64,000 bases of DNA, taken from contig JACOTW010000007.1 in NCBI GenBank assembly GCA_016178135.1, positions 431-64,430 of the forward strand. Direction: 5' to 3'. The DNA comes from Candidatus Saccharimonadota bacterium (GTDB lineage: Bacteria > Patescibacteriota > Saccharimonadia > Saccharimonadales > JACOTW01). A program made the position numbers and the translations under genes. Below, in pieces: positions 11,738 to 63,868 of the stretch. Numbering within the stretch: the stretch's first letter is position 1; the number at the start of each line of letters is the position of its first letter. Below the pieces are notes generated by a model. It had not been told where the DNA came from. It did no database searches and worked only from the letters and a program-made list of their open reading frames with translations.

Positions 11738-11847
11738 TTAGACCTACCCGAAGCTCCTCCATCCCCAGATCGAATTCTGTCGGCTCCAAACAGTTTTCAC
11801 CAGAAATAATTCACTCTGGGATCGGGCGATTTTGCGACAGGTCAAGT
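11738..11847 (+). mobile_element. family-B MITE-like element, copy B1 (short form, degenerate ends)
   Basis: It shares ...GCTCCTCCATCCCCAGATCGAAT...TCGGCT...AAACAGTTTTC...TTCACTCTGGGA.CGGGCGATTTTGCGACAGG with other B copies. The central part is missing. Confidence 0.7.
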
Positions 11848-11853
11848 GTAGAT

Positions 11854-12561
11854 TCAAAAAGTAATTTCCATCTTGACAGAAGGGTTGTCAACCACCGTAC
11901 CGTCAAGTAGATAAATAATCCGCTTGCTGGCCTTGGCAATTCTTGGATCATGCGTAACTATGATGAATGTTTTGCCTTCTTCTTGATTGAGCTGTTTGAT
12001 TAATCTAAATATTTCAGCACCAGTATGACTATCTAAATTACCGGTTGGTTCATCTGCCAGAATAATGGGCGGATCCAAAATCAGTGCACGAGCTATCGCC
12101 ACACGTTGCATCTGTCCACCAGACAGTTCTGATGGTTTATTGTTGAGTTTATCGCCCAGACCAACGGTTTCCAATAACTTGATAGCCCGTTGCCTATAAA
12201 AGCTTTTTCGACGCAAAGGCATTATTGGCAATAATACATTGTCTAACGCACTCAAAGTAGACACTAGATAGAATGATTGGAAAACAAAACCTATTTTTTG
12301 GCGACGAACTTTAAAAAGACGTCCTTCGGGAACGTTGGTAATATCGACTCCATCAATTATAACGTGTCCGGATTCTGGCCGATCCAGTGCCCCCAGCTGG
12401 TTTAATAACGTGGTCTTGCCAGAACCGGATGGGCCCATTATGGAGACCAGCTCACCTTGCTTAATAACAAAACTCATATTATTGAGCGCTTTATAGGCGG
12501 TCTTTCCTCTAACGTAGGTTTTGTTGATTTTATTTACTTCTATTATGTTGCGATTTTTCAT
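11854..12561 (-). CDS. ABC transporter ATP-binding protein (MacB/LolD-like)
   Basis: Walker [10 protein letters not shown], signature [15 protein letters not shown], Walker [12 protein letters not shown]. Confidence 0.9.
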
Positions 12562-12565
12562 AATT

Positions 12566-13783
12566 TTATAGTGCTTTCAGTGTTTCAACCGGACTGACAC
12601 GGGCTGCCCGAACTGCCGGATACAAACCCCCGACAACACCCATGGCTACCCCGAAAAACAATACTCCAAATGTTAATAACGGGGTAATAACAGCTATGTC
12701 GCTGCCTAGATAATTATTTATAATTTGCCCGATACCTAGCCCAACAAAGAACCCGATCAATGCTCCGCTAAGCGATAAGGTGATTGATTCTATAAAAACA
12801 GTATATAAAATGTTGCGGTTGCTCCAGCCACCAGCTTTTATAATGCCGAATTCTTGCATCCGTTCCATAACGCTCATCAGCATGATAATCATTATAGAAA
12901 CACCTCCGGCTACTGCCGCGACAATCGCTATAACCAGTAGAAAATTGCGAAAAATATCCAGCGTGTTATTGATATCTCCCAGCAAGTCTTTAGATACGGC
13001 AGATTGAACCGGATTATCTGTACTGGATAGAGTTTGTTCAATTTCTTTAGCTAGCACGCTTACATTATCCGTACTGTCGGCTGTTACTCGAATACTGGTA
13101 ATTTGATCTGGCCTGAGTCCGGCTATTGTTCTGGCTGTAGCTATATTGGTTACTATATTACGATCATTGATGTCATTGCCAGTTTCAAAAATACCAACAA
13201 TAGTTAATGTTACTGTGTCAGGAGCGTTTTTTGGTGATCGAGCTCCTAAATTGTTTGGAGGAATCCTCGGAACTATTATTTTTTGTCCGATAGTGAGTTG
13301 CTGCCCGCCAGTTAACTTATTTTGATTAAGCAGACCCTTGCCTATTATGGCTTCATCGTCCTTAGTTATAGTATTGCCCTCTATAATCTTCACTGACGGA
13401 CCGTCCAGAGTTTTATCTATACCTAAATCAAGTCCTTGAAGCGGGGTTCCGATTGGGCTTTGACTTTCCAAAAACTGTTTGGGGATAGCAGTATTTATTT
13501 GCGGGGATAGTGACTTGATATGATGAAGATTTTTAATCTTTGCCAAATGACTTACGGGTAGGGGGTTGCCACCGCCTATAAAACCACCTATAACTGATGA
13601 TCCTTTTGCTGATATGACTACATCGCCAGCCACTTTATTTAGAGTATTGTTAAGTTCAGTATTCATGCCACTAGACAAGCTAAGCAAAACCGTCATTAAG
13701 GCCGTGCCGATACCGCTACCAGCAATCGCCAAGAATGCGATACCCTTACGGCGAAACCCATTTTTGATAGCAAATCTAAACAC
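12566..13783 (-). CDS. ABC transporter permease, FtsX/MacB-like
   Basis: An N-terminal TM segment, a large periplasmic domain and a C-terminal FtsX-type 3-TM bundle. It is adjacent to the ATPase. Confidence 0.8.
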   Translation of the reverse strand: MFRFAIKNGFRRKGIAFLAIAGSGIGTALMTVLLSLSSGMNTELNNTLNKVAGDVVISAKGSSVIGGFIGGGNPLPVSHLAKIKNLHHIKSLSPQINTAIPKQFLESQSPIGTPLQGLDLGIDKTLDGPSVKIIEGNTITKDDEAIIGKGLLNQNKLTGGQQLTIGQKIIVPRIPPNNLGARSPKNAPDTVTLTIVGIFETGNDINDRNIVTNIATARTIAGLRPDQITSIRVTADSTDNVSVLAKEIEQTLSSTDNPVQSAVSKDLLGDINNTLDIFRNFLLVIAIVAAVAGGVSIMIIMLMSVMERMQEFGIIKAGGWSNRNILYTVFIESITLSLSGALIGFFVGLGIGQIINNYLGSDIAVITPLLTFGVLFFGVAMGVVGGLYPAVRAARVSPVETLKAL

Positions 13784-18272: not shown

Positions 18273-19793
18273 TTATTCGACGGTAATTGGCTGTAGATTC
18301 TTGAGCCCTGTTTTCACAAGCCTAACAATAATCCGGCCAACACGAATAGCTATCGGATCAATTATGTTGGCTGGTATGACTGTCTTGGTGCGTGAAAACA
18401 AAAACTCCTGTTGATTGTCTTCGTTAGCAAGTTCTGTCAAGTACTCAATTGCTTGCACCAAAAAATCAATGTCGTGCCGGACTATTAATTCATCTAAAGC
18501 ATCCTGGGGACTTCTACGTCCCAGCAACTCAAACAATCTTATAATTTTTTCTTCGATTTCTGGGGCTAATGGTGATGCTTCAGTAATACGCAGGTTATCT
18601 ACTGTAAAGAGTTGGTCGATTTCCTGTATCAGATTAGTAATTTCTTGCATTTCAGGAGTTTTGGAAGTTTCCTGGATTAATGTGATTAGTTCGGCTAGTG
18701 ATTTTTCGATTGGTTGCCGACTGGCTGTTTCACGGATTTCTTCCAGATTGCCGATAGTATCAATGACTTCCAAGGAGCCTAAGTATTCTTCAAATAGGCC
18801 CACATTTGGGGTTTCTATTTGTGTATCAAAATCTTGTTCTGTATCTGCAACCGTATCCGTCACGAATGTAATTAATGGTTCTATAGTCATTACTGGCTCG
18901 ATATCGTCAGTTATACTGGACTTACGCAAAGCTCCCCCATCCCCAGACCAACTAATCTCGGCTGATAGTGGCCTGTCTTCTTTCGATGTGGCTACCTCTC
19001 CTTCAGCCAAACCACTCCCAACTCGAGCTGATTTAGCCTGGGAACGGGCGATTTTGCGTAAGTCCAGTTTATTTGGCATTAGTTTGACCTCTTCCTTGAT
19101 AATTGCTGTTTTTGGGTCTATACGGCTAGGCGTGTCAGTGTCAGGAATAAGCTCTGGGCTATCCTCCGTAATGGAGTCTTTATTAATAATATTTGTTTTG
19201 CCAGGAATAATGACGAACTTTGTTGCAATTATGGGTGATTTGGATATTTGCGTTTTGAGGGTAGGGGCTGGACTATTGGTTTCTTCGATGATTACCCGAA
19301 TATCAGAAACTTCATTTTTCAGTACATTTTCATTGTGTATAATTTCATGCCTCAAAGACGCTGGTAAGATAGGGCTGGGTAAGATTTCGATACGTGCAGT
19401 TTGTTTACTTGTTATCTTTGGCTCAAATACTTGGCTGACCTTAGCGGGGATAGTTGTTTCCGTGTTTTTATTCACTGCCCGGGGTGCTTTTTCTATAGTT
19501 GCTTCCGGATGTTTTACCTCGGTTTTTAAATAAGCTTCGACGACAATCTTGAAGGCTACTTCGCCCAGTTTGGCAAGATAGGGACATACCTCGCGCAGTT
19601 GTGATTCCGGTATAGTCATACCATTGTAGGTAATTATGCGCTCGGTCTGAATATCCCCTGTTGTAGTGGCCAAATTTTCCTGGTTGATCGTGGTAGCTGT
19701 TGCCCCCTCGGCGGTCGTATCAGAATGTTCCGCTAACCACCAGATTTCATCGCCAAGTTCTGGCACGGCACTCATTTCTATCGTGTCGGGCAA
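18273..19793 (-). CDS. acidic hypothetical protein (506 aa) carrying an in-frame family-B element
   Basis: Long ORF with 4-nt spacing to the upstream ORF. The antisense 372-aa ORF is a Ser/Ile-rich mirror artefact. Confidence 0.6.
   Translation of the reverse strand: MPDTIEMSAVPELGDEIWWLAEHSDTTAEGATATTINQENLATTTGDIQTERIITYNGMTIPESQLREVCPYLAKLGEVAFKIVVEAYLKTEVKHPEATIEKAPRAVNKNTETTIPAKVSQVFEPKITSKQTARIEILPSPILPASLRHEIIHNENVLKNEVSDIRVIIEETNSPAPTLKTQISKSPIIATKFVIIPGKTNIINKDSITEDSPELIPDTDTPSRIDPKTAIIKEEVKLMPNKLDLRKIARSQAKSARVGSGLAEGEVATSKEDRPLSAEISWSGDGGALRKSSITDDIEPVMTIEPLITFVTDTVADTEQDFDTQIETPNVGLFEEYLGSLEVIDTIGNLEEIRETASRQPIEKSLAELITLIQETSKTPEMQEITNLIQEIDQLFTVDNLRITEASPLAPEIEEKIIRLFELLGRRSPQDALDELIVRHDIDFLVQAIEYLTELANEDNQQEFLFSRTKTVIPANIIDPIAIRVGRIIVRLVKTGLKNLQPITVE
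18914..19069 (+). mobile_element. family-B element, copy B2, inside a coding region
   Basis: Both TIRs are present (ACTGGACTTACGCAAAG... and ...TTTTGCGTAAGTCCAGT) and it is flanked by TTAT/TTAT. It is translated as LDLRKIARSQAKSARVGSGLAEGEVATSKEDRPLSAEISWSGDGGALRKSS. Confidence 0.85.
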
Positions 19794-25707: not shown

Positions 25708-26328
25708 ATGGAAGAGACTAATAAATTCCAACAATTAGCGAGTGCGGAACAACTAAAGCGTACCGTTGCCGCGCTAGAAACTAACGGTATATCCGCTGTT
25801 GTAGTTGAAACTGGCGCCGAGGCAAAGACTAAGGCGTTATCCCTTATAGAAAAAGGCACGAGTGTTATGACCGCCACCTCAACCACCGCCGATCAGATTG
25901 GTCTGGGCGAAGCTATTGAGGAATCCAAAGATTTTGTATCTTTGCGCAAAAAAATCACCGAATTGCCCGAGAGCGAACAGCGCGCGGCAGCTCGCCGTAT
26001 CAACAGCGCGCCCGACTATGTAGTTGGCAGTGCCAATGCCGTTACAGAAGATGGTAAGGTCGTTATCGCCTCTAATTCTGGTAGTCAGCTAGCGCCTTAC
26101 GCTTTTTCGGCCGCCCATGTAATCTGGGTAGTTGGTACACAAAAAATTGTCGCTAATCTTGACGAAGCCATGAAACGCATTGAGGAATATACTCTAAAGT
26201 TAGAGAGTGAGCGTTTGCAGAAAATATACGGTATGGACAGTGTTATTCGTAAAACGTTAATCATAAACAGCGAAGTTATGCCAGGACGTATCACTATGAT
26301 TCTGGTTAAAGAAAAGTTGGGATTTTAG
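25708..26328 (+). CDS. LUD-domain (LutC/YkgG-like) protein
   Basis: The size and the pattern ...GSANAVTEDGKVVIASNSGSQL...RITMILVKEKLGF are typical of DUF162/LUD proteins. Confidence 0.7.
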   Translation: MEETNKFQQLASAEQLKRTVAALETNGISAVVVETGAEAKTKALSLIEKGTSVMTATSTTADQIGLGEAIEESKDFVSLRKKITELPESEQRAAARRINSAPDYVVGSANAVTEDGKVVIASNSGSQLAPYAFSAAHVIWVVGTQKIVANLDEAMKRIEEYTLKLESERLQKIYGMDSVIRKTLIINSEVMPGRITMILVKEKLGF

Positions 26329-26330: not shown

Positions 26331-26546
26331 ATGGAAGATCATAAGCACCAAAACGAACCGCTGGCCACCTGCCAAGTTTGCAAGGTGCAAGTACCGCGCA
26401 GCCAGTTGCTGAAGCACAATCTTAAGGCCCACCGACTACTTTTCATAGGATTGTCGTTGCTAAGGCTACCTCTCCTTCAGATAAAACAGTTTTCGCTCGA
26501 AATAATTCACTCTGGGAACGGACGATTTTGCGTAAGTCCAGTATAG
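26331..26546 (+). CDS. small zinc-finger-like ORF whose 3' end runs into a family-B half element
   Basis: CQVCKVQVPRSQLLKHNLKAH (C-x2-C...H-x5-H). Residues after about 40 are repeat-encoded. Confidence 0.3.
   Translation: MEDHKHQNEPLATCQVCKVQVPRSQLLKHNLKAHRLLFIGLSLLRLPLLQIKQFSLEIIHSGNGRFCVSPV
26460..26542 (+). mobile_element. family-B element, copy B3 (right half only)
   Basis: GCTACCTCTCCTTCAGATAAAACAGTTTTCGCTCGA.ATAATTCACTCTGGGAACGGACGATTTTGCGTAAGTCCAGT, nearly identical to the right half of B6. Confidence 0.8.
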
Positions 26547-26578: not shown

Positions 26579-27010
26579 ATGCAGGCAGTAGCAGTAGCAG
26601 TAGCAGTATTAGTACAAAATAAAAAGACGACCCGTAGCAATGAATACATCCCGGGTGTGTGCAATATTGGTGAAGCTGAACGCGCCAAACGCCGTCAATC
26701 TGGCATTATCAGTACTCTTGTCGCGATAGTCCTATTAGTCTTATTAGTGGCTATTGACGCACCTAGGGGCTGGAGGTTACTGCTAATTTTGCCTGTTGCT
26801 GGAGCGGCTACGGGGTTTTTGCAAGATGCTATGCATTTTTGCGCTGGGTTTGGTTTGAAAGGTGTTTTTAATGTCATCAATAGTGCTGGTATAACTGACA
26901 GTGTTGACCTAGAAGAATTCCGCAAAAAAGACCGCCGCAAAGCATTACAAATTTCCGGATATAGTTTGGCAATCGGCACAGGAATTGCATTACTAAGCTT
27001 ACTAATTTAA
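26579..27010 (+). CDS. membrane protein (YgaP/DUF2892-like)
   Basis: NIGEAERAKRR followed by two TM segments. The assignment is tentative. Confidence 0.45.
   Translation: MQAVAVAVAVLVQNKKTTRSNEYIPGVCNIGEAERAKRRQSGIISTLVAIVLLVLLVAIDAPRGWRLLLILPVAGAATGFLQDAMHFCAGFGLKGVFNVINSAGITDSVDLEEFRKKDRRKALQISGYSLAIGTGIALLSLLI
26585..26608 (+). repeat. hexanucleotide repeat (GCAGTA)x4
   Basis: Tandem repeat at codons 3-10 of the ORF, encoding AVAVAVAV. Copy-number change would stay in frame. Confidence 0.9.
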
Positions 27011-27914: not shown

Positions 27915-27995
27915 TTATTAGATAACTCCTATAACAGATAATTATACGCCACAATTCATGTTTCGGGGCTATGGTCTATACTGGACTATATTTGA

Positions 27996-32072: not shown

Positions 32073-32759
32073 TGGTGGGGATGGCAGGATTTGAACCTGC
32101 GACCAATCGGTTATGCGCACCACTACAACTTTCGTTGCCTCTTTCGAGTTTGTAGTCCGGACTGTCTCTTCATCCGCATATACGGATGCCTGCCATACAG
32201 TCTCTACACCTTCCCAGACTTTATAAAACTCTGGGCTTGGCTCGGGATTGCCAAGGCCGAAGCCGTAGGGTTCCCCGAATTTGACAAGATATACTTATCG
32301 GTTACCCGATAAGCAGCCCTTTTACTGTTTGACCTATCTAAGTTAACGTAATGGTTATGAAGAAAGAGTCTAACTGTAAAGTTTGTGGCGATGAACTGAC
32401 CGGAAAGCAAACGCTTTTTTGCTCAATAAAATGCAAAAATGCGTTGCATCAATCCTATCCTTCGCAAAAAAAGCGAGGAATAGAGCGTAAGCTACATTTC
32501 GTCAAAATGCTTGGCGGAAAATGCTCACACTGCGGTTACTCAGCCAATCTTGCCGGTTTGGCATTTCACCATTTAGGCGGCAAGGAATTTCAGCTGGATG
32601 TTCGTTCGCTGTCAAACCGAAAGATTGAACCCATTCTCAAAGAAGTTGCAAAATGCAAGCTTCTCTGTCACAACTGCCATGCAGAAGTGCACAATCCAGG
32701 CTTAGACTTAGCCAAATTGTCAATTGAGCCGACTGCTCTAACCACTGAGCTACATCCCC
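32073..32759 (-). tRNA. tRNA with CAU anticodon (Ile2/Met type) interrupted by a group I intron
   Basis: The 5' exon is 32759-32727 and the 3' exon 32115-32073. Joined, they give a 76-nt cloverleaf GGGGAUG...CGGCU|CAUAACCG...CAUCCCCACCA with a perfect acceptor stem and encoded CCA. Confidence 0.85.
32116..32726 (-). ncRNA. group I intron (IC3-like core) in the anticodon loop
   Basis: The 5' exon ends in U and the intron ends in G. The core strings GUCAAAUUCGGGGAACCCUACGG, GGCAAUCCCGAGCCAAGC and GAAGGUGUAGAGACUGUAUGGCA match the conserved core of bacterial tRNA introns such as the Azoarcus tRNA-Ile intron, as I recall it. Confidence 0.8.
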
Positions 32760-33798: not shown

Positions 33799-33909
33799 AC
33801 CGGGCTTATGCGAAACTCCTCCATCCCCAGATCGAATAATCTCGATTGCAGACAGTTTTCCCTCGAGCTGGTTAACCCTGGGAACGAGCGATTTCGCGAC
33901 AGACCCAGT
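33799..33909 (+). mobile_element. family-B element, copy B4 (short form)
   Basis: ACCGGGCTTATGCGAAACTCCTCCATCCCCAGATCGAAT...CCTGGGAACGAGCGATTTCGCGACAGACCCAGT. Confidence 0.75.
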
Positions 33910-36113: not shown

Positions 36114-36722
36114 GTGGATATAAATATCATGGATATCAGGAATCAAGATACGCGACCAAACAACCAAGCAAACTTAACTACTCAAGCAGCATCTAGTAAC
36201 GCAACACGTGGGTACAAAAAATCCAAAGTTGCCGTTGGTATTCGCTTGGCATTTGTAGCACTCTTGTTTTCGGCAACTATTTTGGTTGTAGCCCTGGTGC
36301 TTTATGTGGCTATTGGTGGGCCAAAGAATGAAAAAGAATACGTTGATAAAACTAAAGTTCAGGCCGTTTTCCTAAATGGTGGGCAAGTTTATTTTGGTCG
36401 AATTGTAAATATGAGTGATAAGTATATAAATCTATCCAACATTTATTACTTGAGTGTTAGCCAGCAAGTTCAGCCAGATGAAAAAAAGACCAATAATCAA
36501 CAGCAGAATATAACCTTGGTCCCACTTGGTTGTGAATTACACCGACCCCAAGATAATATGCTAATCAATCGTGATCAGGTCATTTTCTGGGAGAACATGA
36601 AAGATGATTCTAGCGAAAAAACCGTACCTGGCGCTATCAAGAAAGATACTGCGGCAAATCCAAAAGGACACACTTGTCAAGAAAGTGGTACTAGCAATAC
36701 GCCCGATGCCAATAAGCCTTAG
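36114..36722 (+). CDS. membrane-anchored hypothetical protein
   Basis: A single TM segment after a polar N-terminus. The ATG at 36129 (MDIRNQ...) is a possible alternative start. Confidence 0.45.
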   Translation: MDINIMDIRNQDTRPNNQANLTTQAASSNATRGYKKSKVAVGIRLAFVALLFSATILVVALVLYVAIGGPKNEKEYVDKTKVQAVFLNGGQVYFGRIVNMSDKYINLSNIYYLSVSQQVQPDEKKTNNQQQNITLVPLGCELHRPQDNMLINRDQVIFWENMKDDSSEKTVPGAIKKDTAANPKGHTCQESGTSNTPDANKP

Positions 36723-36728: not shown

Positions 36729-36867
36729 ACTCGACTTAAGCGAAACCATACGTTCCCAGAGTGAACTTGTTGTATCTGAAGAGGGGTATCTATAACTAGA
36801 GAAGATCGGTCGCTACCAGCCGAGATTAGATGGTCTGGAGATGGGAGAGTTTTGCGACAGGTCCAAT
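36729..36867 (-). mobile_element. family-B element, copy B5 (reverse orientation, diverged)
   Basis: ACTCGACTTAAGCGAAACC.TACGTTCCCAGAGTGAA ... CCGAGATTAGATGGTCTGGAGATGGGAGAGTTTTGCGACAGGTCCAAT. Confidence 0.7.
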
Positions 36868-36917
36868 CTATTCCTCGCTCAACATAGGCTACGGCCTAAG
36901 TCTCTCTAGGCCACAAA

Positions 36918-37582: not shown

Positions 37583-37606
37583 TATACTTTAGATTATACT
37601 GGACTT

Positions 37607-38908
37607 ATGCATATTTATTTTAGTGGTATTGGCGGGACTGCTATTGGCCCCTTGGCCCTAATTGCTCAACAAGCAGGTTTTACCGTTTCTGGCTCTGACA
37701 AACAAGATTCTCAATACATCACATATCTAAAGAAACGCGGGATAACTAATATTCACGTTGGTCAGAGTCGTGAACAAATTGAAGCAGTTCACCAAAAAAG
37801 TCCGATTGATTGGTTTATATATTCGTCGGCAGTTGCCATAGAAAACCCTAACGCTCCAGAGCTTGCTTTCTGTTCAGAAAAAATCATTAAAATATCTAAA
37901 CGTGATGAATTATTGAACCTGATATTGCAAGATAAACATCTGAAACTAATAGCTATAGCCGGTACGCATGGTAAAACTACCACAACAGCTATGATCATCT
38001 GGCTGTTTAAACAACTCGGGGAACCTGTATCGTATTCAGTTGGGGCAAAAATCAGCTTTGGCGATATGGGACAATATCAAAATAATTCAAAATATTTTGT
38101 TTATGAGGCCGATGAATTTGACCACAACTTCTTAGGTTTTGAGCCATATCTTAGTGTTATTTCTGGTGTAAGTTGGGATCATCATGAATATTTTCCAACC
38201 AGAGAAGACTATCAACAGGCCTTCCGTGAGTTTATAGCTCAAAGTCAACGGACTATTATCTGGCAAGAAGATTATGGATATTTGGGCTTGACCGTAAAAA
38301 CTCATTATTCATTGCTGGATTCCAGCGAACCAGTAATTAGTTCAATAGATATACCCGGCCATTATAATCGTCTGGATGCTTGGCTCGCTATCCAGGCAGT
38401 ACATACAATCCTCAAAACACCCATAACTAAGCTGATTGAGCTTATCAAACTTTTTCCTGGTTTACAGCGACGCATGGAAGAGATTGTCCCAGGTCTTTAT
38501 AGCGACTATGCTCACACCCCAGAAAAAATCCGTGGTGCTATGAGTGTCGCGCTGGAAATAGCCGAGAAACAAAAAAAAGACCTAGTAGTCATTTACGAAC
38601 CACTGACAAATCGTCGTCAACACTACATACTAGACAACTACAAAGACTGCTTCAATGGTGCTAGGAAAGTTTATTGGATACCCAGTTATCTGGCACGAGA
38701 AAATCCAACCCAGAGAATTATTGAGCCGTTAGAGCTCATAGCCCACCTTAGCGATCCAACTATTGCACAACCAGAGATACGTAACGATAAACTAAAAAAA
38801 ATCATCCAAAAACACCTATATAAAGGTACTATGGTAGTGGCCATGTCCGGCGGAGGCGGCGATAGTTTGGATGAATGGATTAGACACGAGTTTCGCACCC
38901 TGCCATAG
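37607..38908 (+). CDS. Mur ligase family protein (MurC/Mpl-like)
   Basis: MHIYFSGIGGTAIGPLA (N-terminal Rossmann motif) and the P-loop AGTHGKTTTTAM. I chose the start at 37607 to avoid overlap with the divergent gene. The last 7 codons lie in repeat C4. Confidence 0.8.
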   Translation: MHIYFSGIGGTAIGPLALIAQQAGFTVSGSDKQDSQYITYLKKRGITNIHVGQSREQIEAVHQKSPIDWFIYSSAVAIENPNAPELAFCSEKIIKISKRDELLNLILQDKHLKLIAIAGTHGKTTTTAMIIWLFKQLGEPVSYSVGAKISFGDMGQYQNNSKYFVYEADEFDHNFLGFEPYLSVISGVSWDHHEYFPTREDYQQAFREFIAQSQRTIIWQEDYGYLGLTVKTHYSLLDSSEPVISSIDIPGHYNRLDAWLAIQAVHTILKTPITKLIELIKLFPGLQRRMEEIVPGLYSDYAHTPEKIRGAMSVALEIAEKQKKDLVVIYEPLTNRRQHYILDNYKDCFNGARKVYWIPSYLARENPTQRIIEPLELIAHLSDPTIAQPEIRNDKLKKIIQKHLYKGTMVVAMSGGGGDSLDEWIRHEFRTLP

Positions 38909-41131: not shown

Positions 41132-41351
41132 ACTGGACTTACGCAAAACTCCTCCATCCCCAGATCGAATTCTATCGGCTACTCTTCGAGTCTGAGCCTG
41201 AGGGCTCACCTCAGAGTCGAAGACAAACAGTTTTTCTTCTTTCAATGTAGCCAAGAACTAATTAGCTCTAAAGCTACCTCTCCTTCAGATAAAACAGTTT
41301 TCGCTCGAGATAATTCACTCTGGGAACGGACGATTTTGGGTAAGTCCAGTT
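41131..41351 (+). mobile_element. family-B element, copy B6 (long form with a nested hairpin insert)
   Basis: TA|AACTGGACTTACGCAAAA...TTTTGGGTAAGTCCAGTT|TA. The extra internal palindrome TCTTCGAGTCTGAG...CTCAGAGTCGAAGA is absent from other copies. Confidence 0.85.
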
Positions 41352-46228: not shown

Positions 46229-46376
46229 TTGATAAACCTATCGCAAAATCTCCGTTTCCAGGGCGAATCAGCTCGAGCAAAAACAGTTTTATCTGGAAGG
46301 TACGTAAAGAGAAGAAAAACTGTTTGCAGCTGAGTTTAGTCAGTCTGAGGACGAGCGATTTCGCGACAGGTTCAGT
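46229..46376 (-). mobile_element. family-B element, copy B7 (reverse orientation, degenerate left end)
   Basis: ...CTATCGCAAAATCTCCGTTTCCAGGGCGAATCAGCTCGAGCAAAAACAGTTTT...GAGCGATTTCGCGACAGGTTCAGT. Confidence 0.75.
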
Positions 46377-46687
46377 GTACGCCAACCAATATACCAAAGC
46401 ACCGTGGCAACAATCAGACTTGTGATACCCAAGCCTGCAAACCAACCAATTTTGGATGATCTTGGTGGTGGTGCTACTTGTTGGCTTACGTAAGCAGTAA
46501 CCTCTTCTTGGCTTATGCCACTAATATCAATCGGAATACCGCCTACATTACTATTATCTAGAGCCTTAAAATTAGCCGTTGATTGTAGTCCCTCTTGCTG
46601 ATTAAGCAGGTTTTGACCGCCACCGATAGTTTGGGGGTTACCAGTTTTTAGCTGATCATTAGATTGAAGATTTTGGAATGACTGCAT
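46340..46687 (-). CDS. hypothetical protein with a C-terminal TM segment; tail and stop lie in B7
   Basis: The last ~12 residues (TLNLSRNRSSSD) are encoded by the repeat. Confidence 0.45.
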   Translation of the reverse strand: MQSFQNLQSNDQLKTGNPQTIGGGQNLLNQQEGLQSTANFKALDNSNVGGIPIDISGISQEEVTAYVSQQVAPPPRSSKIGWFAGLGITSLIVATVLWYIGWRTLNLSRNRSSSD

Positions 46688-46707: not shown

Positions 46708-47556
46708 CTAACTAATTATTAGTGAGGTTAGAATTGCTTTTATAGGGTCAACAAAATTTTTATCATCCAGCATACTACTCGGAACTCCTACGGATGCTCC
46801 CGCTTCTGAACAGCTACTATCCGAACATTTAACAAAAGCCACACTAATAACCGGCTCTATTGGCAAAATGTCGGCCTTTGGTATGGCCTGTGCCAATTGA
46901 TAACCAGTATCACCTGTTATAAACATAGCATCAATCGTGGTTTCCGAAGTCGTTGAGCCAGCAAGATGCAAAAAACTTAGAAACGTCTGTCCTCGTTGAT
47001 TTTGAGCGGGCTGGGTATAAGTAATCTTTTCTGATGCTCGGGTGGCCAACGCATTGCCCTTGTCAAATTCCGGAAATTTTTGCTGCTTGGTACGAATCAT
47101 AATAATGATTTGCCCGTTAATATCCTGACCGCCTCTTATATTTTTAAATTTGTTGCTGGGCGAACGTAGGATAAGCTGACCATTACCCTCGACATCTGTT
47201 AGAACCCAATCTTCTGGATAATCCATAGACAGACCGAATTGACCGGATATGTAGTGTTTAGATGCGACGGTCGGCTTGGATGATGTTTCTGATTGTCTGA
47301 CACTCGTTGGTTGAGGCTTTGATTCTTGTGGTCCTGTCCGTACAAAAAACCAATATCCAATTACGCCTATAACAACCAAGGTACCAAAAACAAATATCAA
47401 GCCCAACGAACGTTGACTACGCAGTTTTGATCTATACTTCGGGGGAGTCAGATCTGCAAAATCACGCGTTTCTTCCAAAGAATCCCTATAAGCATCTCTA
47501 CCTTCTGGTGTACGCGGACTATCTGGACGCGGTGTGTCGTGGTAATCCATAACCAT
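46708..47556 (-). CDS. membrane-anchored hypothetical protein
   Basis: An N-terminal cytoplasmic tail, a TM segment and an extracellular domain. Confidence 0.5.
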   Translation of the reverse strand: MVMDYHDTPRPDSPRTPEGRDAYRDSLEETRDFADLTPPKYRSKLRSQRSLGLIFVFGTLVVIGVIGYWFFVRTGPQESKPQPTSVRQSETSSKPTVASKHYISGQFGLSMDYPEDWVLTDVEGNGQLILRSPSNKFKNIRGGQDINGQIIIMIRTKQQKFPEFDKGNALATRASEKITYTQPAQNQRGQTFLSFLHLAGSTTSETTIDAMFITGDTGYQLAQAIPKADILPIEPVISVAFVKCSDSSCSEAGASVGVPSSMLDDKNFVDPIKAILTSLIIS

Positions 47557-47561: not shown

Positions 47562-47724
47562 TACTGGACTTGTCGCAAAATCCCCCGTTCCCAGGGCGAA
47601 TCAGCTCGAGCGAAAACAGTTTTGTCTGAAGGAGAGGTACCCAGGAGGTACATCGAGAGAGGAAAAACTGTTTGTAGCCGAGGTTAGTCGGTCTGGGGAT
47701 GAGGGATTTTGCGTAAGTCCAGTT
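47562..47724 (-). mobile_element. family-B element, copy B8 (full length, reverse orientation)
   Basis: TA|TACTGGACTTGTCGCAAAATC...GGGATTTTGCGTAAGTCCAGTT|TA. It fills the whole gap between two genes. Confidence 0.85.
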
Positions 47725-49247
47725 TAAGAGGCTGTTTTCAGAAGATTCAAAATATCAGGGCCATATTTAGCGGCTTTGGCAGGGCCAATGCCGTTTACGG
47801 CTAACAATTGGCTGTCTGTCTGTGGCTTACTAGTAGCAATGGTGAGCAACAAGCTATCGTGAGCAATTATGTAGGCTGGCATACCCTCATCTCTGGCACG
47901 CTTAGTACGCCAAGCTTTTAATTTGGCTAGCAGATCATCATCAACGGCCTGTACTGGTGGCTCTTCGGTTTCAGTATCGTCTTCGGCCTCTGTAGTAATG
48001 TCAGCCAGTCTGGACGACGATGACTTTAACGCTTGGTCCAGTTCAAATATGGCTGGGTGTAGTCGCAATGCCATAGCATTAATACCGCTCAAATATAGTC
48101 CGTCCAGACTACGCACGCGCGACAAAGCTACATAGCCCATGCCAGGCGTAAACGTCTTACTCAAGTCAATTTCAGCAGCATCTAGACTCATACCTTGGCT
48201 TTTATGAATCGTAATAGCCCATGCCAGGCGTAGAGGCAACTGCATAACTTCCGCCCTAATTTTATTATCTTCTTCAAGTTTCCAGCTATGGGGCACGACT
48301 TTGATCTTGCGGGTACTGTTATATAGACGCACGATTGGTTGTTCGTTATTAAACTCCACAACCCGCCCACGCGTACCATTAACAAAACCAGCCGTCGGAT
48401 TATTGGCCACAAACATTATTTCCGCACCAATTTTTAGTTCCAACAAATCAGCCGCCAAAACACCACGCTGTAACTGTTCAATCTTTAACGCTGAACCTTT
48501 AGTAGTCATTTCGTAAGTATGAATTTCGTTCGGTAATTCCTTAAGACGACGCTGATTAAGGGTGTCAATATCCACATTGTGGGCATACAGGCGAGTCACT
48601 GACTGGTTACTAGACGGTCGCTGGCCTATTCTAGTTTTTAATAACTCTCGATGATATGGCTCCAGTTCATCATGACGCATGGCCTCTAATAACTCCAGTA
48701 AGCCGTCACGCTGTTGACGATGTTGCTCGCTCAAGTAGCAAATTTGTGGATTTAGTTCTCGCCAAGCGGCCGACAAATGCACAAAGTCTGGCGCTTCCAT
48801 GCCACGATTGACTGGAGGCAATTGAAACAAATCACCAACCAATATAACTTGCAAACCTCCAAAAGGTCGTTCGCTTTTACGCAGTAATTTACAAGCTTCA
48901 TTGACCATATCCAATCTGTGCCCATGTAGCATTGAAACTTCATCGATAACTAAAATATCAGTCGAATTATAACGTTTAGCCAGTTTTGCATTCACTGCCA
49001 ATTGCTGACGAGTCCTCGGGTCAATATATTCTTTTATGCCCAGACCAGACCAAGAATGAATAGTCACGCCACCGATATGCGTCGCCGCAATACCCGTACT
49101 GGCGGTAACTGCCACTGTTTTGCCGTGCTTCTTGGCACGCCGAATAAACTCATTCAAAATATAAGTCTTGCCAGCCCCTGGCGGTCCAGTCAAAAACACC
49201 GCCTCTCCCCCCAACATAACATTCAACGCCTGCTTCTGCCTCATCAC
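47724..49247 (-). CDS. PIF1/RecD-like ATP-dependent DNA helicase with a C-terminal HRDC domain
   Basis: Walker A GPPGAGKT and DEVSM. The C-terminal AWRTKRARDEGMPAYIIAHDSLL...NGIGPAKAAKYG is HRDC-like. Confidence 0.85.
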   Translation of the reverse strand: MMRQKQALNVMLGGEAVFLTGPPGAGKTYILNEFIRRAKKHGKTVAVTASTGIAATHIGGVTIHSWSGLGIKEYIDPRTRQQLAVNAKLAKRYNSTDILVIDEVSMLHGHRLDMVNEACKLLRKSERPFGGLQVILVGDLFQLPPVNRGMEAPDFVHLSAAWRELNPQICYLSEQHRQQRDGLLELLEAMRHDELEPYHRELLKTRIGQRPSSNQSVTRLYAHNVDIDTLNQRRLKELPNEIHTYEMTTKGSALKIEQLQRGVLAADLLELKIGAEIMFVANNPTAGFVNGTRGRVVEFNNEQPIVRLYNSTRKIKVVPHSWKLEEDNKIRAEVMQLPLRLAWAITIHKSQGMSLDAAEIDLSKTFTPGMGYVALSRVRSLDGLYLSGINAMALRLHPAIFELDQALKSSSSRLADITTEAEDDTETEEPPVQAVDDDLLAKLKAWRTKRARDEGMPAYIIAHDSLLLTIATSKPQTDSQLLAVNGIGPAKAAKYGPDILNLLKTAS

Positions 49248-49318: not shown

Positions 49319-49400
49319 TACACGAGTTTCGCACTTAGCCGTTGATGCCAGGTTGCAACTGGACGAGCGAAAACTTTTAATCCGAGTGAGGCATAACCGT
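49319..49400. repeat. family-C half element abutting A3
   Basis: ACACGAGTTTCGCACTTAGCCGTTGATGCCAGGTTGCAACTGGACGAGCGAAAACTTTTAATCC... Confidence 0.55.
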
Positions 49401-49403
49401 AGT

Positions 49404-49544
49404 TATAGCCCCCGCAAAACAAATTCGTGGGTTTTTGAAGCAATGATCTTTGAGCCAAAAACTGACTTTTCCGAGAGAGACATATCCTTAGATACGTTGA
49501 ACGAGGAAAGGCGGTTTTGGGCCAAAGAGGGTGATTCGAAAAGT
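49404..49544 (+). mobile_element. family-A element, copy A3 (intergenic, TA-flanked)
   Basis: TA|TAGCCCCC...CGAAAAGT|TA. The element is 139 nt between the TA dinucleotides. Confidence 0.85.
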
Positions 49545-50888: not shown

Positions 50889-51980
50889 CTATTCTAACAT
50901 CTCTGGCTTTTCAGGGGTAGCCTTTTGTGACTCAAAACGTTCTTTGCGATCTTTTTTGGCCGATCGAGTAGCCACAACACGCAAATCATCATATTGATCA
51001 AACTCGTCAATAATTGGTTTGCCAATAATCTGCTCTAGAATATCTTCCATAGTAATAATGCCAGCGTATTCTTCAAAACTATTTACTACTATGAGCAGTT
51101 GCTGGTGAGTTTTCAATATAGCCTGAAGCGCGTCGTACAAACTCTGTTCCTCGTGAATATAATAAACCTCGTGATGCATTTTTCCCTGTACCGATCCCCC
51201 GCCGCGAGCATTCACCAAATCACGCGTGTACAGCAAGCCGACTATATTGTCCTGTTTGTCTTCAAAAACTGGAAAACGAGAATGTCCGCTGGCATGCAAT
51301 TCATCCATCAATACCGGCCCAATAGATTCTCTAATGTTTATCATCTTAACTACTCGACGCGGAATCATAATTTTACTAACAGTTTTATCAGCAAAAGTCA
51401 GAGCATGACTAGCAATACTTAGCTCCATTTGCTCAATACGATTATCGACTTGGGACTGCTGTTGATTGATCAGATCTAGTAAATCTTCTTTTTCATATAA
51501 TCCGGTATGAATGTGCACTGGACGAAAGCGATGCAATAAACCCATAACCCGATCCAATGTCGGATGCAGATAATGCATCAGCCATCCAAAAGCCGGCGCT
51601 AACCACGCCGCCAAACGTTCACCAAAACTCGTGACTGGCCGTACCGGGAGCCATACAAAACCCACCCATACTAAAGCAATGCTTGATGCAAGCGCAAACC
51701 AGAGCGCAGAATAAAGTGCTACATTAACAAAAAATCCAGCCGCAAATAATCCAATCAAAAACCATAAAACCACTCTTAGCGTATACCCGTAACTGACGGC
51801 ACGATACAAAATATTAGCCAATTCATCCCCGGCACGAGCACGCCGCTTAACTTCTTTGACTGGTAGATTATAATAAGTACGCTGTAAACTCACAGATAAC
51901 AGGGTTAAGCCAGCTAGTATAAAACTCAATAAAGTATGCATAGCTTCAATAGTAGCAGAACTTGTATAGGACTTTCGCAC
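50889..51980 (-). CDS. CNNM/DUF21 plus CBS-pair membrane protein (HlyC/CorC-type transporter lacking the CorC domain)
   Basis: Four N-terminal TM segments followed by two CBS motifs. Confidence 0.75.
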   Translation of the reverse strand: MRKSYTSSATIEAMHTLLSFILAGLTLLSVSLQRTYYNLPVKEVKRRARAGDELANILYRAVSYGYTLRVVLWFLIGLFAAGFFVNVALYSALWFALASSIALVWVGFVWLPVRPVTSFGERLAAWLAPAFGWLMHYLHPTLDRVMGLLHRFRPVHIHTGLYEKEDLLDLINQQQSQVDNRIEQMELSIASHALTFADKTVSKIMIPRRVVKMINIRESIGPVLMDELHASGHSRFPVFEDKQDNIVGLLYTRDLVNARGGGSVQGKMHHEVYYIHEEQSLYDALQAILKTHQQLLIVVNSFEEYAGIITMEDILEQIIGKPIIDEFDQYDDLRVVATRSAKKDRKERFESQKATPEKPEMLE

Positions 51981-52059
51981 TTTGTTGCCAATTCCAGAGT
52001 AATCCTGCTTGGACCGAAAATTGTTAAGTTTCTGGAGGGGTAACCATAGCTAAACTGAC

Positions 52060-52125
52060 AAGAGATAAACAGTTTGCAACCCTACAGGATTGGTCTGGGG
52101 ACGGGCGATTTTGCGTAAGTCCAGT
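52060..52125 (-). mobile_element. family-B element, copy B9 (half element)
   Basis: ...AAACAGTTTG...GGTCTGGGGACGGGCGATTTTGCGTAAGTCCAGT followed by ATAAT. Confidence 0.7.
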
Positions 52126-52161
52126 ATAATGTATTATGAGTAACAACATGGAGATTTATGC

Positions 52162-52818
52162 ATGAGTAAGCGTTTCGCGTTTATATTAGTAATCAGTGTA
52201 ATTCTATTCAGTGGATTTTTAATCTTTGGCAAAAAAGACACCAACACCCCTAATAACAGCTCCTCGTCCCGACCAACCAGTCATACCAAAGGTCAAGGAA
52301 AAAGCGGGGTGGTATTGGTTGAATACGGGGATTTCCAGTGTTCGGCTTGCTATGCTTATGAACCTGTTATAAAAGAGATATTTTCTACCTACAACGAACA
52401 AATTACTTTTCAGTTTCGCAATTTCCCACTTGTTCAGATTCACAAAAATGCCCTAGTAGCATCTAGGGCTGCGGAGGCCGCTGCCCTACAAGGTAAGTTT
52501 TGGGAAATGCATGATAAACTTTACGAAACACAAGATCCTAGTGGTAAAACAGGTTGGGTGGTTGCGGATGATCCCGTAAGTTATTTCGCAGAAATTGCCG
52601 CCAAACTTGGTATGAACGTAGAAAAGTTCAAGACTGACTTAAAAAGTAGTGCAGTTAATGACTCTATTCAAGCAGACATAAAAGAGGGTCAGGCACTTGA
52701 TTTCAGTGGCACGCCTTCCTTCGTACTAGATGGCAAAAGAATCGAAAAAAATCCGGCTGATTTGCAAGCTTTCAAGAAACTGATTGAGGATACTATAAAA
52801 GCTAAAACAGGTCAGTAA
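52162..52818 (+). CDS. DsbA-family thiol:disulfide oxidoreductase
   Basis: A signal/TM segment, the active site CSAC, and GTPSF. Confidence 0.85.
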   Translation: MSKRFAFILVISVILFSGFLIFGKKDTNTPNNSSSSRPTSHTKGQGKSGVVLVEYGDFQCSACYAYEPVIKEIFSTYNEQITFQFRNFPLVQIHKNALVASRAAEAAALQGKFWEMHDKLYETQDPSGKTGWVVADDPVSYFAEIAAKLGMNVEKFKTDLKSSAVNDSIQADIKEGQALDFSGTPSFVLDGKRIEKNPADLQAFKKLIEDTIKAKTGQ

Positions 52819-55395: not shown

Positions 55396-56109
55396 AGTCC
55401 GTTTCTCTTGATATAATTCAACACAGGGATAGCAAGGCCTTCGGGTTCCTTGCCGTTACGAATAGCTTGCTTGATTTTCCTCGATGAAACTTTTGGTAAA
55501 TTATGAGCAATAATCTGGTAGCGGAATCTTAGACCTCTGGTCTTCTCTAAGTTCTCCAAGGTTCTTTGAATTCTATTTTCGTCAGACTGACGCACACTAA
55601 CTATGAAACTATAGTCCCCGCAAAACAAATTCGTGGGTTTTTGAAGCAATGATCTTTGAGCCAAAAACTGACTTTTCCGAGAGAGACATATCCTTAGATA
55701 CGTTGAACGAGGAAAGGCGGTTTTGGGCCAAAGAGGGTGATTCGAATGACTGCAGCAAGCACTCTACGTGTGGCCAGCCGGCCAGATGGTCCAACATGTC
55801 GTCGCCTATCAGCATGTATAGATCCGCTCCTTTGAAACGTTCGGTCAGTAGAGGCAAAGTATCGGCTGGCGTAAACCGCTGCTGATTTAGCACTATGCTC
55901 CCTAGACTATGTTCGTTTTTTATAGCTAGTCTGACCATTTCCGTACGATGCTCAAAGGCTTTTACGCCTTGTTTGCGGCGCGGTCTTGGCTCAACCAGAA
56001 AAAAGATTTTGTCTAGATTGCATTGTTTTAGTGCAGCATTCGCAAAAGCAATATGACCATCGTGTACCGGATCAAACGTCCCTGAATATATTCCTATTCT
56101 GCTTTTCAT
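55371..56109 (-). pseudogene. nadD: nicotinate-nucleotide adenylyltransferase gene interrupted by a family-A element
   Basis: The N-terminal part contains SGTFDPVHDGH and ends ...WPHVECLLQS (56109-55747). The C-terminal part, FIVSVRQ...VSSRKIKQAIRNG...VLNYIKRNGLY (55607-55371), is in another frame. Removing 139 or 136 nt restores one ORF. Confidence 0.8.
55610..55746 (+). mobile_element. family-A element, copy A4, inside nadD
   Basis: Its core is identical to A1-A3. The right end is 4 nt shorter (…GATTCGAA|TGACTG). Confidence 0.85.
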
Positions 56110-62175: not shown

Positions 62176-62208
62176 GGCGAAGCCTCACGAGAAGTTAGAA
62201 GATAGAAT

Positions 62209-62571
62209 ATGGAAGATAGAATATCCAGCTTCGAAGATCTGCGCGTTTGGCAAGAAAGCCAAATATCAGCAGTAATGACGTATAGGCTCGTGAAGCAACT
62301 GCCCAAAGATGAAGTCTTTGGACTTATTAGTCAGATGAAACGGGCGGTGGCTTCAGTTTCGGCAAATATTGCAGAGGGTTTTGGGAGAAAAACAAACAAA
62401 GACAAATTACAGTTCTACAGAATTGCATATGGATCGTTGCTTGAGACGAAAAATTTTCTTTATCTCAGCGAAAAGCTTCGGTACATCTCCAACACACAGC
62501 TTGAGGAAATACTTGAGCAAGTGGTTATCTGCCAGAAATTACTGAATGCGTTCATGAGGCCCCTCAAATGA
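62209..62571 (+). CDS. four-helix-bundle protein (23S rRNA intervening-sequence protein family)
   Basis: FEDLRVWQES...SANIAEGFGR...Y.IAYGSLLETK pattern. Confidence 0.8.
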   Translation: MEDRISSFEDLRVWQESQISAVMTYRLVKQLPKDEVFGLISQMKRAVASVSANIAEGFGRKTNKDKLQFYRIAYGSLLETKNFLYLSEKLRYISNTQLEEILEQVVICQKLLNAFMRPLK

Positions 62572-63746
62572 AGAAGCCACCTTCCACCCCCCACCTTCCA
62601 CCTTCCAAATCGCCACGCGTGGCGATTGTGCATGATTGGTTATATGGTGGCGGAGCTGAGAAAGTTGTTTTGGAACTCCATAAAATGTTTCCGAAAGCAC
62701 CGATTTACACCTCGTATTGCACTGATGAGTGGCGGCAAAAACTGGATAACAAGGTTGTGACTGGCTATTTACAATACTGGCCATTCAGTAAATTACGAAA
62801 ATTTTTACCGATTCTGCGCCAACGCTGGTTCAGCGGATTAAATCTTGAGGGTTTTGATTTAGTTATCAGCAGCTCGGGCAATGGCGAAGCCAAATTTGTC
62901 CTATCAAAAATGCCATCTTCCAAACCAGTGCATATCTGTTACTGTCATACACCTCCGCACTTCTTGTGGAACAAATATGATCAATATCTAGAAAACCCTG
63001 GATTTCGTCCTAAATGGTTAGCAAGACTGGGTCTAAAATTACTAGTAAAACCACTTAGAAAACGTGACTACAACATAGCACAAAGAGTTGATTTTTTTAT
63101 TGCTAACTCAACCCATATTCAATCATATATAAAGCAGTATTATGGCCGAGATTCAGTGGTTATCCATCCGCCTGTTGATACTGATAGGTTTTCTAAAATC
63201 AAAGGGACCCAGAGGCAGGGTTTTATAACTGTTGGACGCCAAAATCCTTATAAAAGAACCGACATTTTGATTACTGCTTGCAACAAGCTCAAATTGCCTT
63301 TAACCGTAATTGGCAAAGGCCCCGAACATAAAGACCTAGTTAAGCTGGCTGGCCCTACAATTATGTTTGATACAAATGCCGATGACGACGCTATCGTCGA
63401 GTATATGGCTTCAACCGAGGCGTTTTTATTTGCCGCTGAAGAAGATTTTGGCATTACACCTGTTGAAGCCATGGCAGCCGGCACGCCGGTTATTGCCTAT
63501 AAGGCAGGAGGCGCCTTAGACTATGTTATAGAAGGCAAAACTGGATTATTTTTTGAAGAACAAACATCTGAAAGTTTAATGAAAGTCTTGCAAGATTTTA
63601 ATCCCAAAAAAATTGACGGCATAGAAATTAGCAAACATTCCGAGCTCTTTGCCGAAAAGCAATTCCATAAAAAGTTTAATAAGTTACTAACCGAAAATGT
63701 TCTATACTGGACTTACGCAAAGCTCCCTCATCCCCAGACCGAATAA
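62568..63746 (+). CDS. glycosyltransferase family 4 (GT-B, group 1)
   Basis: The C-terminal EDFGITPVEAMAAGTPVIA motif. The last ~13 codons and the stop are encoded by B10. Confidence 0.85.
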   Translation: MKKPPSTPHLPPSKSPRVAIVHDWLYGGGAEKVVLELHKMFPKAPIYTSYCTDEWRQKLDNKVVTGYLQYWPFSKLRKFLPILRQRWFSGLNLEGFDLVISSSGNGEAKFVLSKMPSSKPVHICYCHTPPHFLWNKYDQYLENPGFRPKWLARLGLKLLVKPLRKRDYNIAQRVDFFIANSTHIQSYIKQYYGRDSVVIHPPVDTDRFSKIKGTQRQGFITVGRQNPYKRTDILITACNKLKLPLTVIGKGPEHKDLVKLAGPTIMFDTNADDDAIVEYMASTEAFLFAAEEDFGITPVEAMAAGTPVIAYKAGGALDYVIEGKTGLFFEEQTSESLMKVLQDFNPKKIDGIEISKHSELFAEKQFHKKFNKLLTENVLYWTYAKLPHPQTE

Positions 63747-63868
63747 CCTCGGCTACAAACAGTTTTTCCTCTCTCGATGTACCTCCCTGGTACCTCTCCT
63801 TCAGACAAAACTGTTTTCGCTCGAGCTGATTCGCCCTGGGAACGAGGGATTTTGCGACAGGCCCAGTA
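63705..63868 (+). mobile_element. family-B element, copy B10 (full length; used here as the forward reference)
   Basis: TACTGGACTTACGCAAAGCTCCCTCATCCCCAGACCGAAT...CTGGGAACGAGGGATTTTGCGACAGGCCCAGTA. It is essentially the reverse complement of B8. Confidence 0.85.

Follow-up and report, generated by a model that had tools for sequence, protein, structure and literature searches.

Family B, a set of short hairpin-forming repeats in the 64-kb window analysed here (the whole stretch of 64,000 nucleotides, from contig JACOTW010000007.1), is most probably a non-autonomous MITE (miniature inverted-repeat transposable element) of Candidatus Saccharibacteria, of IS701 type, with a 4-bp T-N-N-A target duplication and a coding compatibility resembling that of the Rickettsia palindromic elements (RPEs). 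The initial annotation of the window had already called these repeats a MITE family, and they have what defines one: they are small, bounded by inverted repeats, devoid of a transposase gene, present in multiple copies and flanked by target duplications.

Copies and termini of family B

Ten copies or fragments, ~1.4 kb in total, were recovered in the window by an nhmmer profile made from the four full copies (E-values ~1e-10 to 5e-54; Table 1). These four, at 18915, 41132, 47563 and 63706, all read as first described. The short or diverged copies announced at 11738, 33799, 36729 and 46229 were recovered by the same profile, as were the two half copies, that of 26460 as 26461-26542 (E = 2e-23) and that of 52060 as 51988-52125 (E = 6e-13). 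The copies span 109-219 nt, their sole open frames are read-through, and none holds a transposase gene.

The string ACTGGACTTACGCAAA, allowing up to three mismatches, occurs 10 times in the window against 0.58 by chance, and TATACTGGACT, with at most one mismatch, 14 times against 1.09. ACTGGACTTACGCAAA is found at both termini of the full copies with 0-1 mismatch and constitutes their terminal inverted repeats. Both terminus variants noticed earlier are present in the alignment (...GGACTTACGCAAA and ...GGNCCTGTCGCRAAA). The copies first placed at 47562 and 63705 are indeed mutual reverse complements, at 94% identity along 152 nt (95.6% in a second comparison). Each well-preserved full copy folds as a single long hairpin of 55-69 pairs (z ~-6 to -14), which agrees with the long palindromes first reported; the diverged copy at 36729 has lost this hairpin (fold z ~0). 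Some copies contain extra short palindromes, one of 42 nt (ACTCTTCGAGTCTGAGCCTGAGGGCTCACCTCAGAGTCGAAG, window 41182-41223) and one of ~30 nt (within 5433-5622 of locus L055), and these insertions resemble still smaller elements nested in the MITE.

Element boundaries and target duplication

The ORF (open reading frame) 18273-19793(-) of the window is 100% identical to HY003_00070 of a Candidatus Saccharibacteria bacterium (contig JBFOMR010000010.1, ~267-270 kb). Loci L121 and L122 represent 43 kb more of this contig, and L119 is a separate assembly, probably of the same organism. Copies from these loci were added to 20 full copies from the candidate phyla radiation (CPR).

The element proper is ~158 bp long, from CTGGACTTACGCAAA to TTTGCGTAAGTCCAG (second terminus variant, CTGGNCCTGTCGCAAA), and its interior is an imperfect palindrome. 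In the flanks of the 20 full CPR copies T occupies position -3 in 19 and A position +3 in 18, and an unbiased scan of offsets and lengths brought out just one direct-repeat register. Among 34 full copies (the 20 CPR copies, 13 from L121/L122 and one from L119), 19 have a perfect 4-bp T-N-N-A duplication, where 7.6 are expected; none of 20,000 permutations reached 19. TATA is the commonest duplication, the others being TTTA, TAAA, TCTA, TGTA and TAGA. Of the 18 copies in the assemblies of the source organism, 11 show a perfect duplication, some of them the non-consensus TCTA, TGTA and TAGA. By analogy with full insertion sequences, which end C(A/T)GG...CC(T/A)G, the element can be delimited as CTGG...CCAG with T-N-N-A as its duplication.

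The initial annotation had inferred a TA duplication. The letters flanking the copies are as it described them, but the duplicated unit is the 4-bp T-N-N-A. Within the window the duplications of the four full copies all carry 1-2 mismatches (TATA/TTTA, TAAA/TTTA, TAAA/TATA, TATA/TAAA), which is why TA alone had been seen. A flush duplication of 3, 4 or 5 bp abutting ACTGG...CCAGT was also considered; being perfect in at most one of the 20 copies, it was replaced by T-N-N-A.

The ends of family B and the IS701 family

An exact 16-mer scan of 185,579 species genomes (596 Gb) returned >103 loci; with ~280 chance matches estimated, single matches are meaningless. Paired, inverted 16-mers were found in Saccharibacteria metagenome-assembled genomes (MAGs) and in one CPR2 genome (elements of 156-190 bp) and, outside the CPR, in Betaproteobacteria (85 bp; Extensimonas and one MAG), Thermoflexales (136 bp), Cyclobacteriaceae and cyanobacteria. 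In a Parachlamydiaceae MAG (L053) we found a complete insertion sequence of 1079 bp bounded by ACTGGACTTACGCAAAATTC and its inverted copy ACTGGACTTACGCGAAATTC. Its DDE transposase (328 aa) matches NCBIfam NF049921 (IS701 family transposase, E = 2.6e-105) and has >5000 relatives at E < 1e-20. Elements whose transposases share 54-65% identity with it terminate in ACTGGACTTACGCTAAA, CAGGACTTACGCAAAACCC or CAGGACTTACGCAAC (ACTGGACTTACGCTAAA or CAGGACTTACGCAA(A/C)).

The terminal 15-16 nt of family B are identical or nearly identical to those of complete IS701-family elements (L053, L110, L111-L118). Judged by this sequence match, family B has at its terminus the inverted repeat that bounds a widespread IS701 subgroup, and not that of the IS630/Tc1-like partner first suggested. 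Since family B has the ends of IS701-family elements, mobilisation in trans by an IS701-family DDE transposase is the most likely route: after binding to the terminal repeats of 15-16 bp, the enzyme would cut with a 4-bp stagger and move the element by cut-and-paste. A target duplication of exactly 4 bp is described for the IS701 family (PMC2266710). No IS701-type transposase is encoded in the window, as determined by tblastn with the L053 protein, in agreement with the earlier statement that the partner enzyme is not in the window.

An 85-bp MITE family with an unrelated interior was observed in Extensimonas and a beta-proteobacterial MAG (L003, L009, L016, L038, L043, L050, L072 and L099). 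Its left terminus is that of family B (ACTGGACTTACGCAAAC...) and its copies have clean 5-bp duplications: GTTGA, GCGAA, CCCCA, TCCTA, CCCAA and ACGGA. One IS701 subgroup appears to have given rise to MITEs across many phyla. A literature search with the terminus sequence returned only a chance primer match.

Empty sites in relatives and age of the copies

In the closest relatives found the PIF1 proteins are 75-79% identical to that of the window, and their contigs (L105-L109, 46 kb) contain no family B sequence. Three syntenic junctions occupied in the window are MITE-free there (Table 1), so that individual copies differ by presence or absence between relatives, as the first reading had envisaged. 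As these relatives have ~70% DNA identity and intergenic regions that are not alignable, the empty junctions are read by length and synteny and are not base-exact. A nested copy in L121 (17798-18119) is inserted in the central TATA of another copy, with a perfect TATA duplication.

Within the source organism the identity between copies has a median of 79% and reaches 97.5% for the best pair. Because of this range family B mixes old and fairly young insertions. The suggestion that the population was recently active receives only modest backing: the best pair and the intact duplications in 11 of 18 copies speak for it, the median identity and the lack of a perfect duplication among the window's four full copies against it. 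A 16-kb inversion between the inverted copies 47563 and 63706, proposed for their swapped-looking duplications, was discarded, since the genes on either side of the 47563 junction, PIF1 and gene 46708, are also neighbours in the MITE-free L108.

Two contigs are joined or end at a family B copy. At 1413-2621 of a 2820-bp contig (L120, GCA_030841465.1) an ORF begins with the N-terminus of a short-chain dehydrogenase/reductase (SDR) epimerase, continues through a MITE and closes with the C-terminal half of HY003_00070. This half is 97% identical to the window, and the MITE flanks come one from each parental site (TATA and TAGA); L120 is either the product of MITE-mediated recombination between copies or an assembly chimera. 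The Logan contig L001 stops exactly at a family B copy.

Insertions at stop codons, at promoters and within reading frames

The T-N-N-A target overlaps stop codons (TAA-A) and -10 boxes (TATA-AT, TATA-CT), and copies would therefore come to lie at gene ends and promoters and to fill short intergenic gaps. The TAA codons of genes 39749-41131 and 47724-49247 are inside a duplication. At the other end of the 47563 copy, the right duplication (TATA) creates a TATAAT box 7 nt upstream of position 47550, the second ATG of gene 46708-47556(-), which is two codons inside the listed start. More generally, (G)GTATA(C/A)T followed after 5-8 nt by an ATG precedes 10 ORF starts of the window (0-2 in shuffles; Table 1), which suggests -10-only promoters with leaderless mRNAs in this genome. 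The end of the MITE with a TATA duplication imitates this -10 motif (TATACTGGACTT).

The initial annotation had also listed isolated terminus-like strings. Such strings are present at 27977 and 1582, but the one it placed at 37597 is probably not a remnant of a copy: it provides a TATACT -10 box 6 nt upstream of a Mur-ligase ATG (protein MHIYFSGIGG...) and is better taken as a leaderless promoter. Neither intrinsic terminators nor sigma-70 promoters were enriched at family B copies.

The element (158 bp) and its duplication (4 bp) add up to 162 bp, i.e. 54 codons. Frame 1 (CTG GAC TTA CGC AAA ...) can be read without a stop in either orientation in most 160- and 163-nt copies of several diverged subfamilies, that of CPR2 included; frames 0 and 2 contain 1-6 stops. 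The copies embedded in ORFs all have a length of 3n, and intergenic copies include lengths of 159, 161, 162 and 219 nt. Obg, a prepilin peptidase and an SDR epimerase contain in-frame inserts of 43-55 residues. In the epimerase (also named 'GDP-mannose 4,6-dehydratase'; P0244, in L119), where the duplication is TCTA, the insert is just upstream of the catalytic YxxxK, and PDB 2pk3_A aligns on both sides while skipping residues 135-190. In Obg, residues 1-95 and 148-465 are covered by the alignment with PDB 1udx_A. In the prepilin peptidase the insert follows the first hydrophobic stretch MINGIIIVFVGLVLGSFVNALV (first transmembrane segment by eye) and precedes the Cys motif CPDC...CRYC. A PilX-like pilin and HY003_03630 likewise carry copies; UvrC possibly does too, but this could be just an artificial N-terminal extension. 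The AlphaFold model of P0244 from a single sequence was uninformative (mean predicted local distance difference test score, 33), and the encoded peptides have no Pfam match.

Intragenic insertions would be tolerated as 54-residue in-frame inserts because 162 bp corresponds to 54 codons and one frame is open both ways. With such coding tolerance a selfish element could maintain itself, as RPEs do, in a genome nearly devoid of non-coding DNA. This compatibility with translation and the in-frame location of copies are new here; they had been missed by the earlier reading.

Strand asymmetry of the hairpin and alternative explanations

RNAalifold applied to 23 copies retains the basal stem alone, since divergence prevents an alignment of the interiors; compensatory changes occur in 12 of the 22 pairs of this stem. 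Where the two arms mismatch by a transition, the mismatch gives G·U on the 'rev' strand in 128 cases versus 35 on the 'fwd' strand, with the bias in 19 of 20 copies, and the asymmetry is also seen at subfamily-specific positions, in Saccharibacteria as well as CPR2. Since these mismatches are G·U-compatible on the 'rev' strand, the 'rev' RNA exceeds the 'fwd' RNA in stability by 15-30 kcal/mol in nearly all copies. The asymmetry is possibly due to the inheritance of asymmetric arms, to a mutational bias of the master lineage or to a strand-specific single-stranded step.

We regard as unlikely, although of consequence, the proposition that the master lineage was selected both for translatability (one frame open in both orientations, 3n length) and for a strand-specific single-stranded hairpin. 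The G·U bias between the arms, seen in Saccharibacteria and CPR2 alike, speaks for the second property. If the proposition were true, the first property would let the element colonise the coding DNA of a ~90% coding genome. The propagation of IS701-type MITEs would then include a single-stranded or RNA step, or one strand would have been domesticated as RNA. MITE-borne modules of 54 residues would be a regular route of protein variation in the CPR, including in essential genes such as obg.

The hairpin also bears on the alternatives to an IS701-type MITE. Family B could be a structured RNA or regulatory hairpin serving the host (a terminator, mRNA stabiliser, RNase target or small RNA) and not primarily mobile. 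The great stability of the hairpins (z down to -14), the compensatory changes in the basal pairs across subfamilies, the more stable 'rev' strand and the copies at gene ends and promoter regions would all fit. But orientation is not biased with respect to flanking transcription (tandem, 6 'rev' and 5 'fwd'; 7 divergent and 2 convergent), the hairpin is not followed by a T-tract, terminators are not enriched and there is no credible Rfam match (the best, to MIR447, has 24 bits for a gathering score of 200). In addition, copies are located within coding sequences and the syntenic sites of relatives are empty. Altogether this explanation seems to us quite improbable. The Rfam scan of the window gave only a tRNA and a group I intron.

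Still less probable is a Stowaway- or Correia-like MITE with a TA duplication, mobilised by an IS630/Tc1-mariner transposase. Three of the four full copies of the window can be read as TA, one nucleotide, ACTGG...CCAGT, one nucleotide, TA; the flanks are AT-rich and the commonest duplication, TATA, contains TA. By hand count, however, a TA-plus-1-nt model fits just 7 of 20 copies, whereas T-N-N-A fits 19 of 34, including TCTA, TGTA, TAGA, TTTA and TAAA, the last two of which have no central TA. Moreover the terminus matches the IS701 family, and no IS630-type element with family B ends (CTGGACTTACGC) was seen. The least credible origin is a REPIN-like one, i.e. an inverted pair of repetitive extragenic palindromic (REP) units moved as single-stranded DNA by a Y1 (RAYT / IS200-like) transposase: the long imperfect palindrome, a G·U asymmetry (19/20 copies, 128 vs 35) that could stem from a strand-specific single-stranded intermediate and the Y1_Tnp gene adjoining PIF1 in the relative L108 would suit it, but Y1 transposases (IS200/IS605) make no target duplications and family B has clear 4-bp ones, its termini are the ends of DDE IS701 elements, its arms measure ~80 nt versus 20-40 bp for REP units, the window has no Y1 gene, and L108, which has one, is without a family B copy.

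Several observations weigh against reading family B as an IS701-type MITE with coding compatibility. First, the duplication is perfect in none of the four full copies of the window. Second, the full-length relatives examined duplicate 5 bp (L111-L114: ACCGT, ATCAG, CCTAA, ACGGA), as do the beta-proteobacterial MITEs with the same terminus, versus 4 bp in the CPR family; because of this difference the enzyme mobilising the CPR family may belong to a different IS701 subgroup. Third, no IS701 transposase was found in the window or in ~190 kb of CPR DNA examined, L121 and L122 (43 kb), L119 (7.1 kb) and the other CPR loci included, so that we infer the partner transposase from foreign genomes. Fourth, most copies are old, as their median identity indicates. 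Finally, the copies owe their 3n length and their open frame largely to a 160-nt master copy, for which reason the evidence that selection maintains coding compatibility is suggestive and no proof; that the host proteins tolerate their inserts is likewise a presumption.

Host genome, abundance and distribution

The window has a GC content of 42%, and the homologs of its PIF1-type helicase bear Patescibacteria or Saccharimonadales names; the streamlined genome recognised at first sight is that of a Saccharibacteria/CPR MAG, of the epibiont type. A cyanobacterial origin, to which the GC content and a tRNA-linked group I intron had pointed, was discarded in view of these protein names and of the repeats shared with Saccharibacteria MAGs. 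Over 114,050 bp (the window, L119, L121 and L122) family B gives 34 matches, representing ~28-30 elements and 4139 bp, i.e. 3.6%, with ~13 matches in the 21 kb of L121.

The interior sequence of family B matches CPR loci only. Since the CPR2 elements match the window profile over their full length (E 1e-9 to 1e-12), the family spans two CPR phyla. Its distribution is nevertheless narrow, since a search for the encoded peptide in 1.84 billion representative proteins gave just 35 clusters (E <= 1e-3), most being spurious short ORFs. Carriage by viruses was not detected: 14 exact 16-mers were found in IMG/VR, which is the chance level, and none had a partner terminus, family homology or a transposase. 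In the literature covered, which is incomplete, we found no paper joining Saccharibacteria and miniature inverted-repeat elements.

A second hairpin repeat family (A or C of the initial annotation), of ~112-141 nt, was observed in the window (1663-1803, 8207-8349, 49400-49544 and 55606-55746) and outside it (L075 5770-5937, L119 6658-6732 and L122 21201-21275). In the window its four copies share 97-100% identity among themselves and 96-98% with a copy from another Saccharibacteria MAG, CAYGIR01, and the family looks far younger than family B. Its lead, TATAGTCCCCGCAAAAC, is loosely like the family B terminus, and its interior weakly cross-matches the family B profile (E ~8e-5).

Other mobile or intervening sequences were seen in this genome and its relatives. 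A group I intron (Rfam RF00028, 72.6 bits) is located at window 32135-32341 (-), next to a tRNA-like arm (32073-32123) that is 75% complementary to the 3' half of tRNA-Met (2488-2538); ARAGORN made no call, and the arrangement suggests that this Saccharibacteria genome has a tRNA gene split by an intron. In L121 (11393-13576 (-), contig JBFOMR010000010.1) a 727-aa tyrosine recombinase (Phage_integrase) is split by an intein with a LAGLIDADG domain. In L108 (2743-3357 (-); GCA_964463635.1 CAYXCB010000015.1) a 204-aa Y1_Tnp protein (PF01797, IS200/RAYT-like) is encoded directly upstream of PIF1.

Table 1. Family B copies, a terminus-like string and promoter-like motifs in the window, with the matching junctions of relatives.
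Feature	Position (strand)	Length	Ends, flanks or interior	Setting	Evidence	Junction in relative and in window
Short copy, internal deletion	11739..11847 (+)	109 nt	left terminus degraded; right, variant 2 (GCGACAGGTCAAGT)	convergent genes 9016-11463(+) / 11854-12561(-)	nhmmer E ~1e-14; alignment	
Full copy	18915..19068 (+)	154 nt	flanks TATA / TTTA	within ORF 18273-19793(-), HY003_00070; in-frame read-through, 'rev' peptide LDLRKIARSQAKSARVGSGLAEGEVATSKEDRPLSAEISWSGDGGALRKSS		
Right-half copy	26461..26542 (+)		profile positions 81-162	genes 25708-26328(+) / 26579-27010(+)	nhmmer E = 2e-23	
Short copy, internal deletion	33799..33909 (+)	111 nt	left and right diverged; right, variant 2		two nhmmer matches, E = 5e-11 and 2e-10	
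Diverged copy	36729..36868 (-)	~140 nt		convergent genes 36114-36722(+) / 36974-37582(-)	nhmmer 36729-36865, E = 5e-17	
Full copy	41132..41350 (+)	219 nt	flanks TAAA / TTTA; two insertions, one 42-nt palindromic and one central	stop TAA of gene 39749-41131(+) inside left duplication		
Copy with one variant-2 terminus	46232..46377 (-)	~146 nt		ORF 46340-46687(-) ends within copy	nhmmer 46236-46367, E = 4e-25	upstream of gene 44216 ortholog: L108 58 nt, window 174 nt
Full copy	47563..47723 (-)	161 nt	one terminus per variant	occupies whole gap between PIF1-helicase gene 47724-49247(-) and gene 46708-47556(-)		PIF1 / gene 46708 ortholog: L108 30 nt, window 167 nt
Diverged partial copy	51988..52125 (-)		envelope 51968-52126	divergent intergenic region, 50889-51980(-) / 52162-52818(+)	nhmmer E = 6e-13	thioredoxin / CBS divergent pair: L105 47 nt, window 181 nt
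Full copy	63706..63867 (+)	162 nt	one terminus per variant	gene 62568-63746(+) terminates 41 nt into copy		
Terminus-like string	37595..37613 (+)		TATACTGGACTTATGCATA	Mur-ligase gene ATG at 37607		
(G)GTATA(C/A)T starts	7303, 28014, 37595 (+); 58481, 49256, 47563, 46701, 44209, 12896, 6749 (-)					

Significance and comparison with known elements

With their genomes of ~1 Mb, Saccharibacteria and the other members of the CPR are considered streamlined, a view on which a single selfish repeat family amounting to ~3.6% of the sampled DNA has a bearing. Some insertions interrupt essential genes in frame (obg and those of the pilD-type prepilin peptidase and the SDR epimerase), and others sit exactly on stop codons and -10 boxes. 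It also matters for annotation, many 'hypothetical' short ORFs and N-terminal extensions being read-through of the element, and for metagenome assemblies, which it breaks or chimerises (L001 stops at a copy, and L120 is hybrid, joined across one).

Among known MITEs, the Correia elements of Neisseria are likewise hairpin-forming, abundant and found beside genes. They duplicate TA and have 26-bp terminal repeats; the terminal repeats of family B differ and its duplication is the 4-bp T-N-N-A. The cyanobacterial Nezha, Muzha and Anabaena MITEa-e, compared by description, are closer in design, being MITEs of ~130-220 bp with terminal repeats shared with insertion sequences and stable hairpins. 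Some of the Nezha and other cyanobacterial MITEs form ORF fusions (PMC3184786). In Nostocales (Komarekiella, L015 and L095) elements are even bounded by the same 16-mer, but the interior of the CPR family matches CPR loci alone. With the IS701 insertion sequences family B shares the terminal 15-16 nt and the published size of the duplication. Unlike them it lacks a transposase gene, its long-palindrome interior is unrelated to the interiors of the insertion sequences seen, and its target is strongly T-N-N-A, the full-length relatives examined duplicating 5 bp.

The closest likeness in behaviour is to the RPEs, which are palindromic repeats of ~150 bp in a reduced genome. Unrelated protein-coding genes harbour RPEs in frame, and the peptide that these encode is conserved (PMC10969869). 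The in-frame copies of family B inside Obg, the prepilin peptidase and the SDR epimerase parallel this, as a shared behaviour and not as a class of homology. The host of family B belongs to a different phylum, within the CPR, and its terminal repeats, its duplication and its probable transposase family can be identified, which is not known to be so for the RPEs. Family B would be a second, independent case of the Rickettsia phenomenon, and one in which the origin of such 'coding palindromes' is testable because the termini, the duplication and the likely transposase family are at hand.

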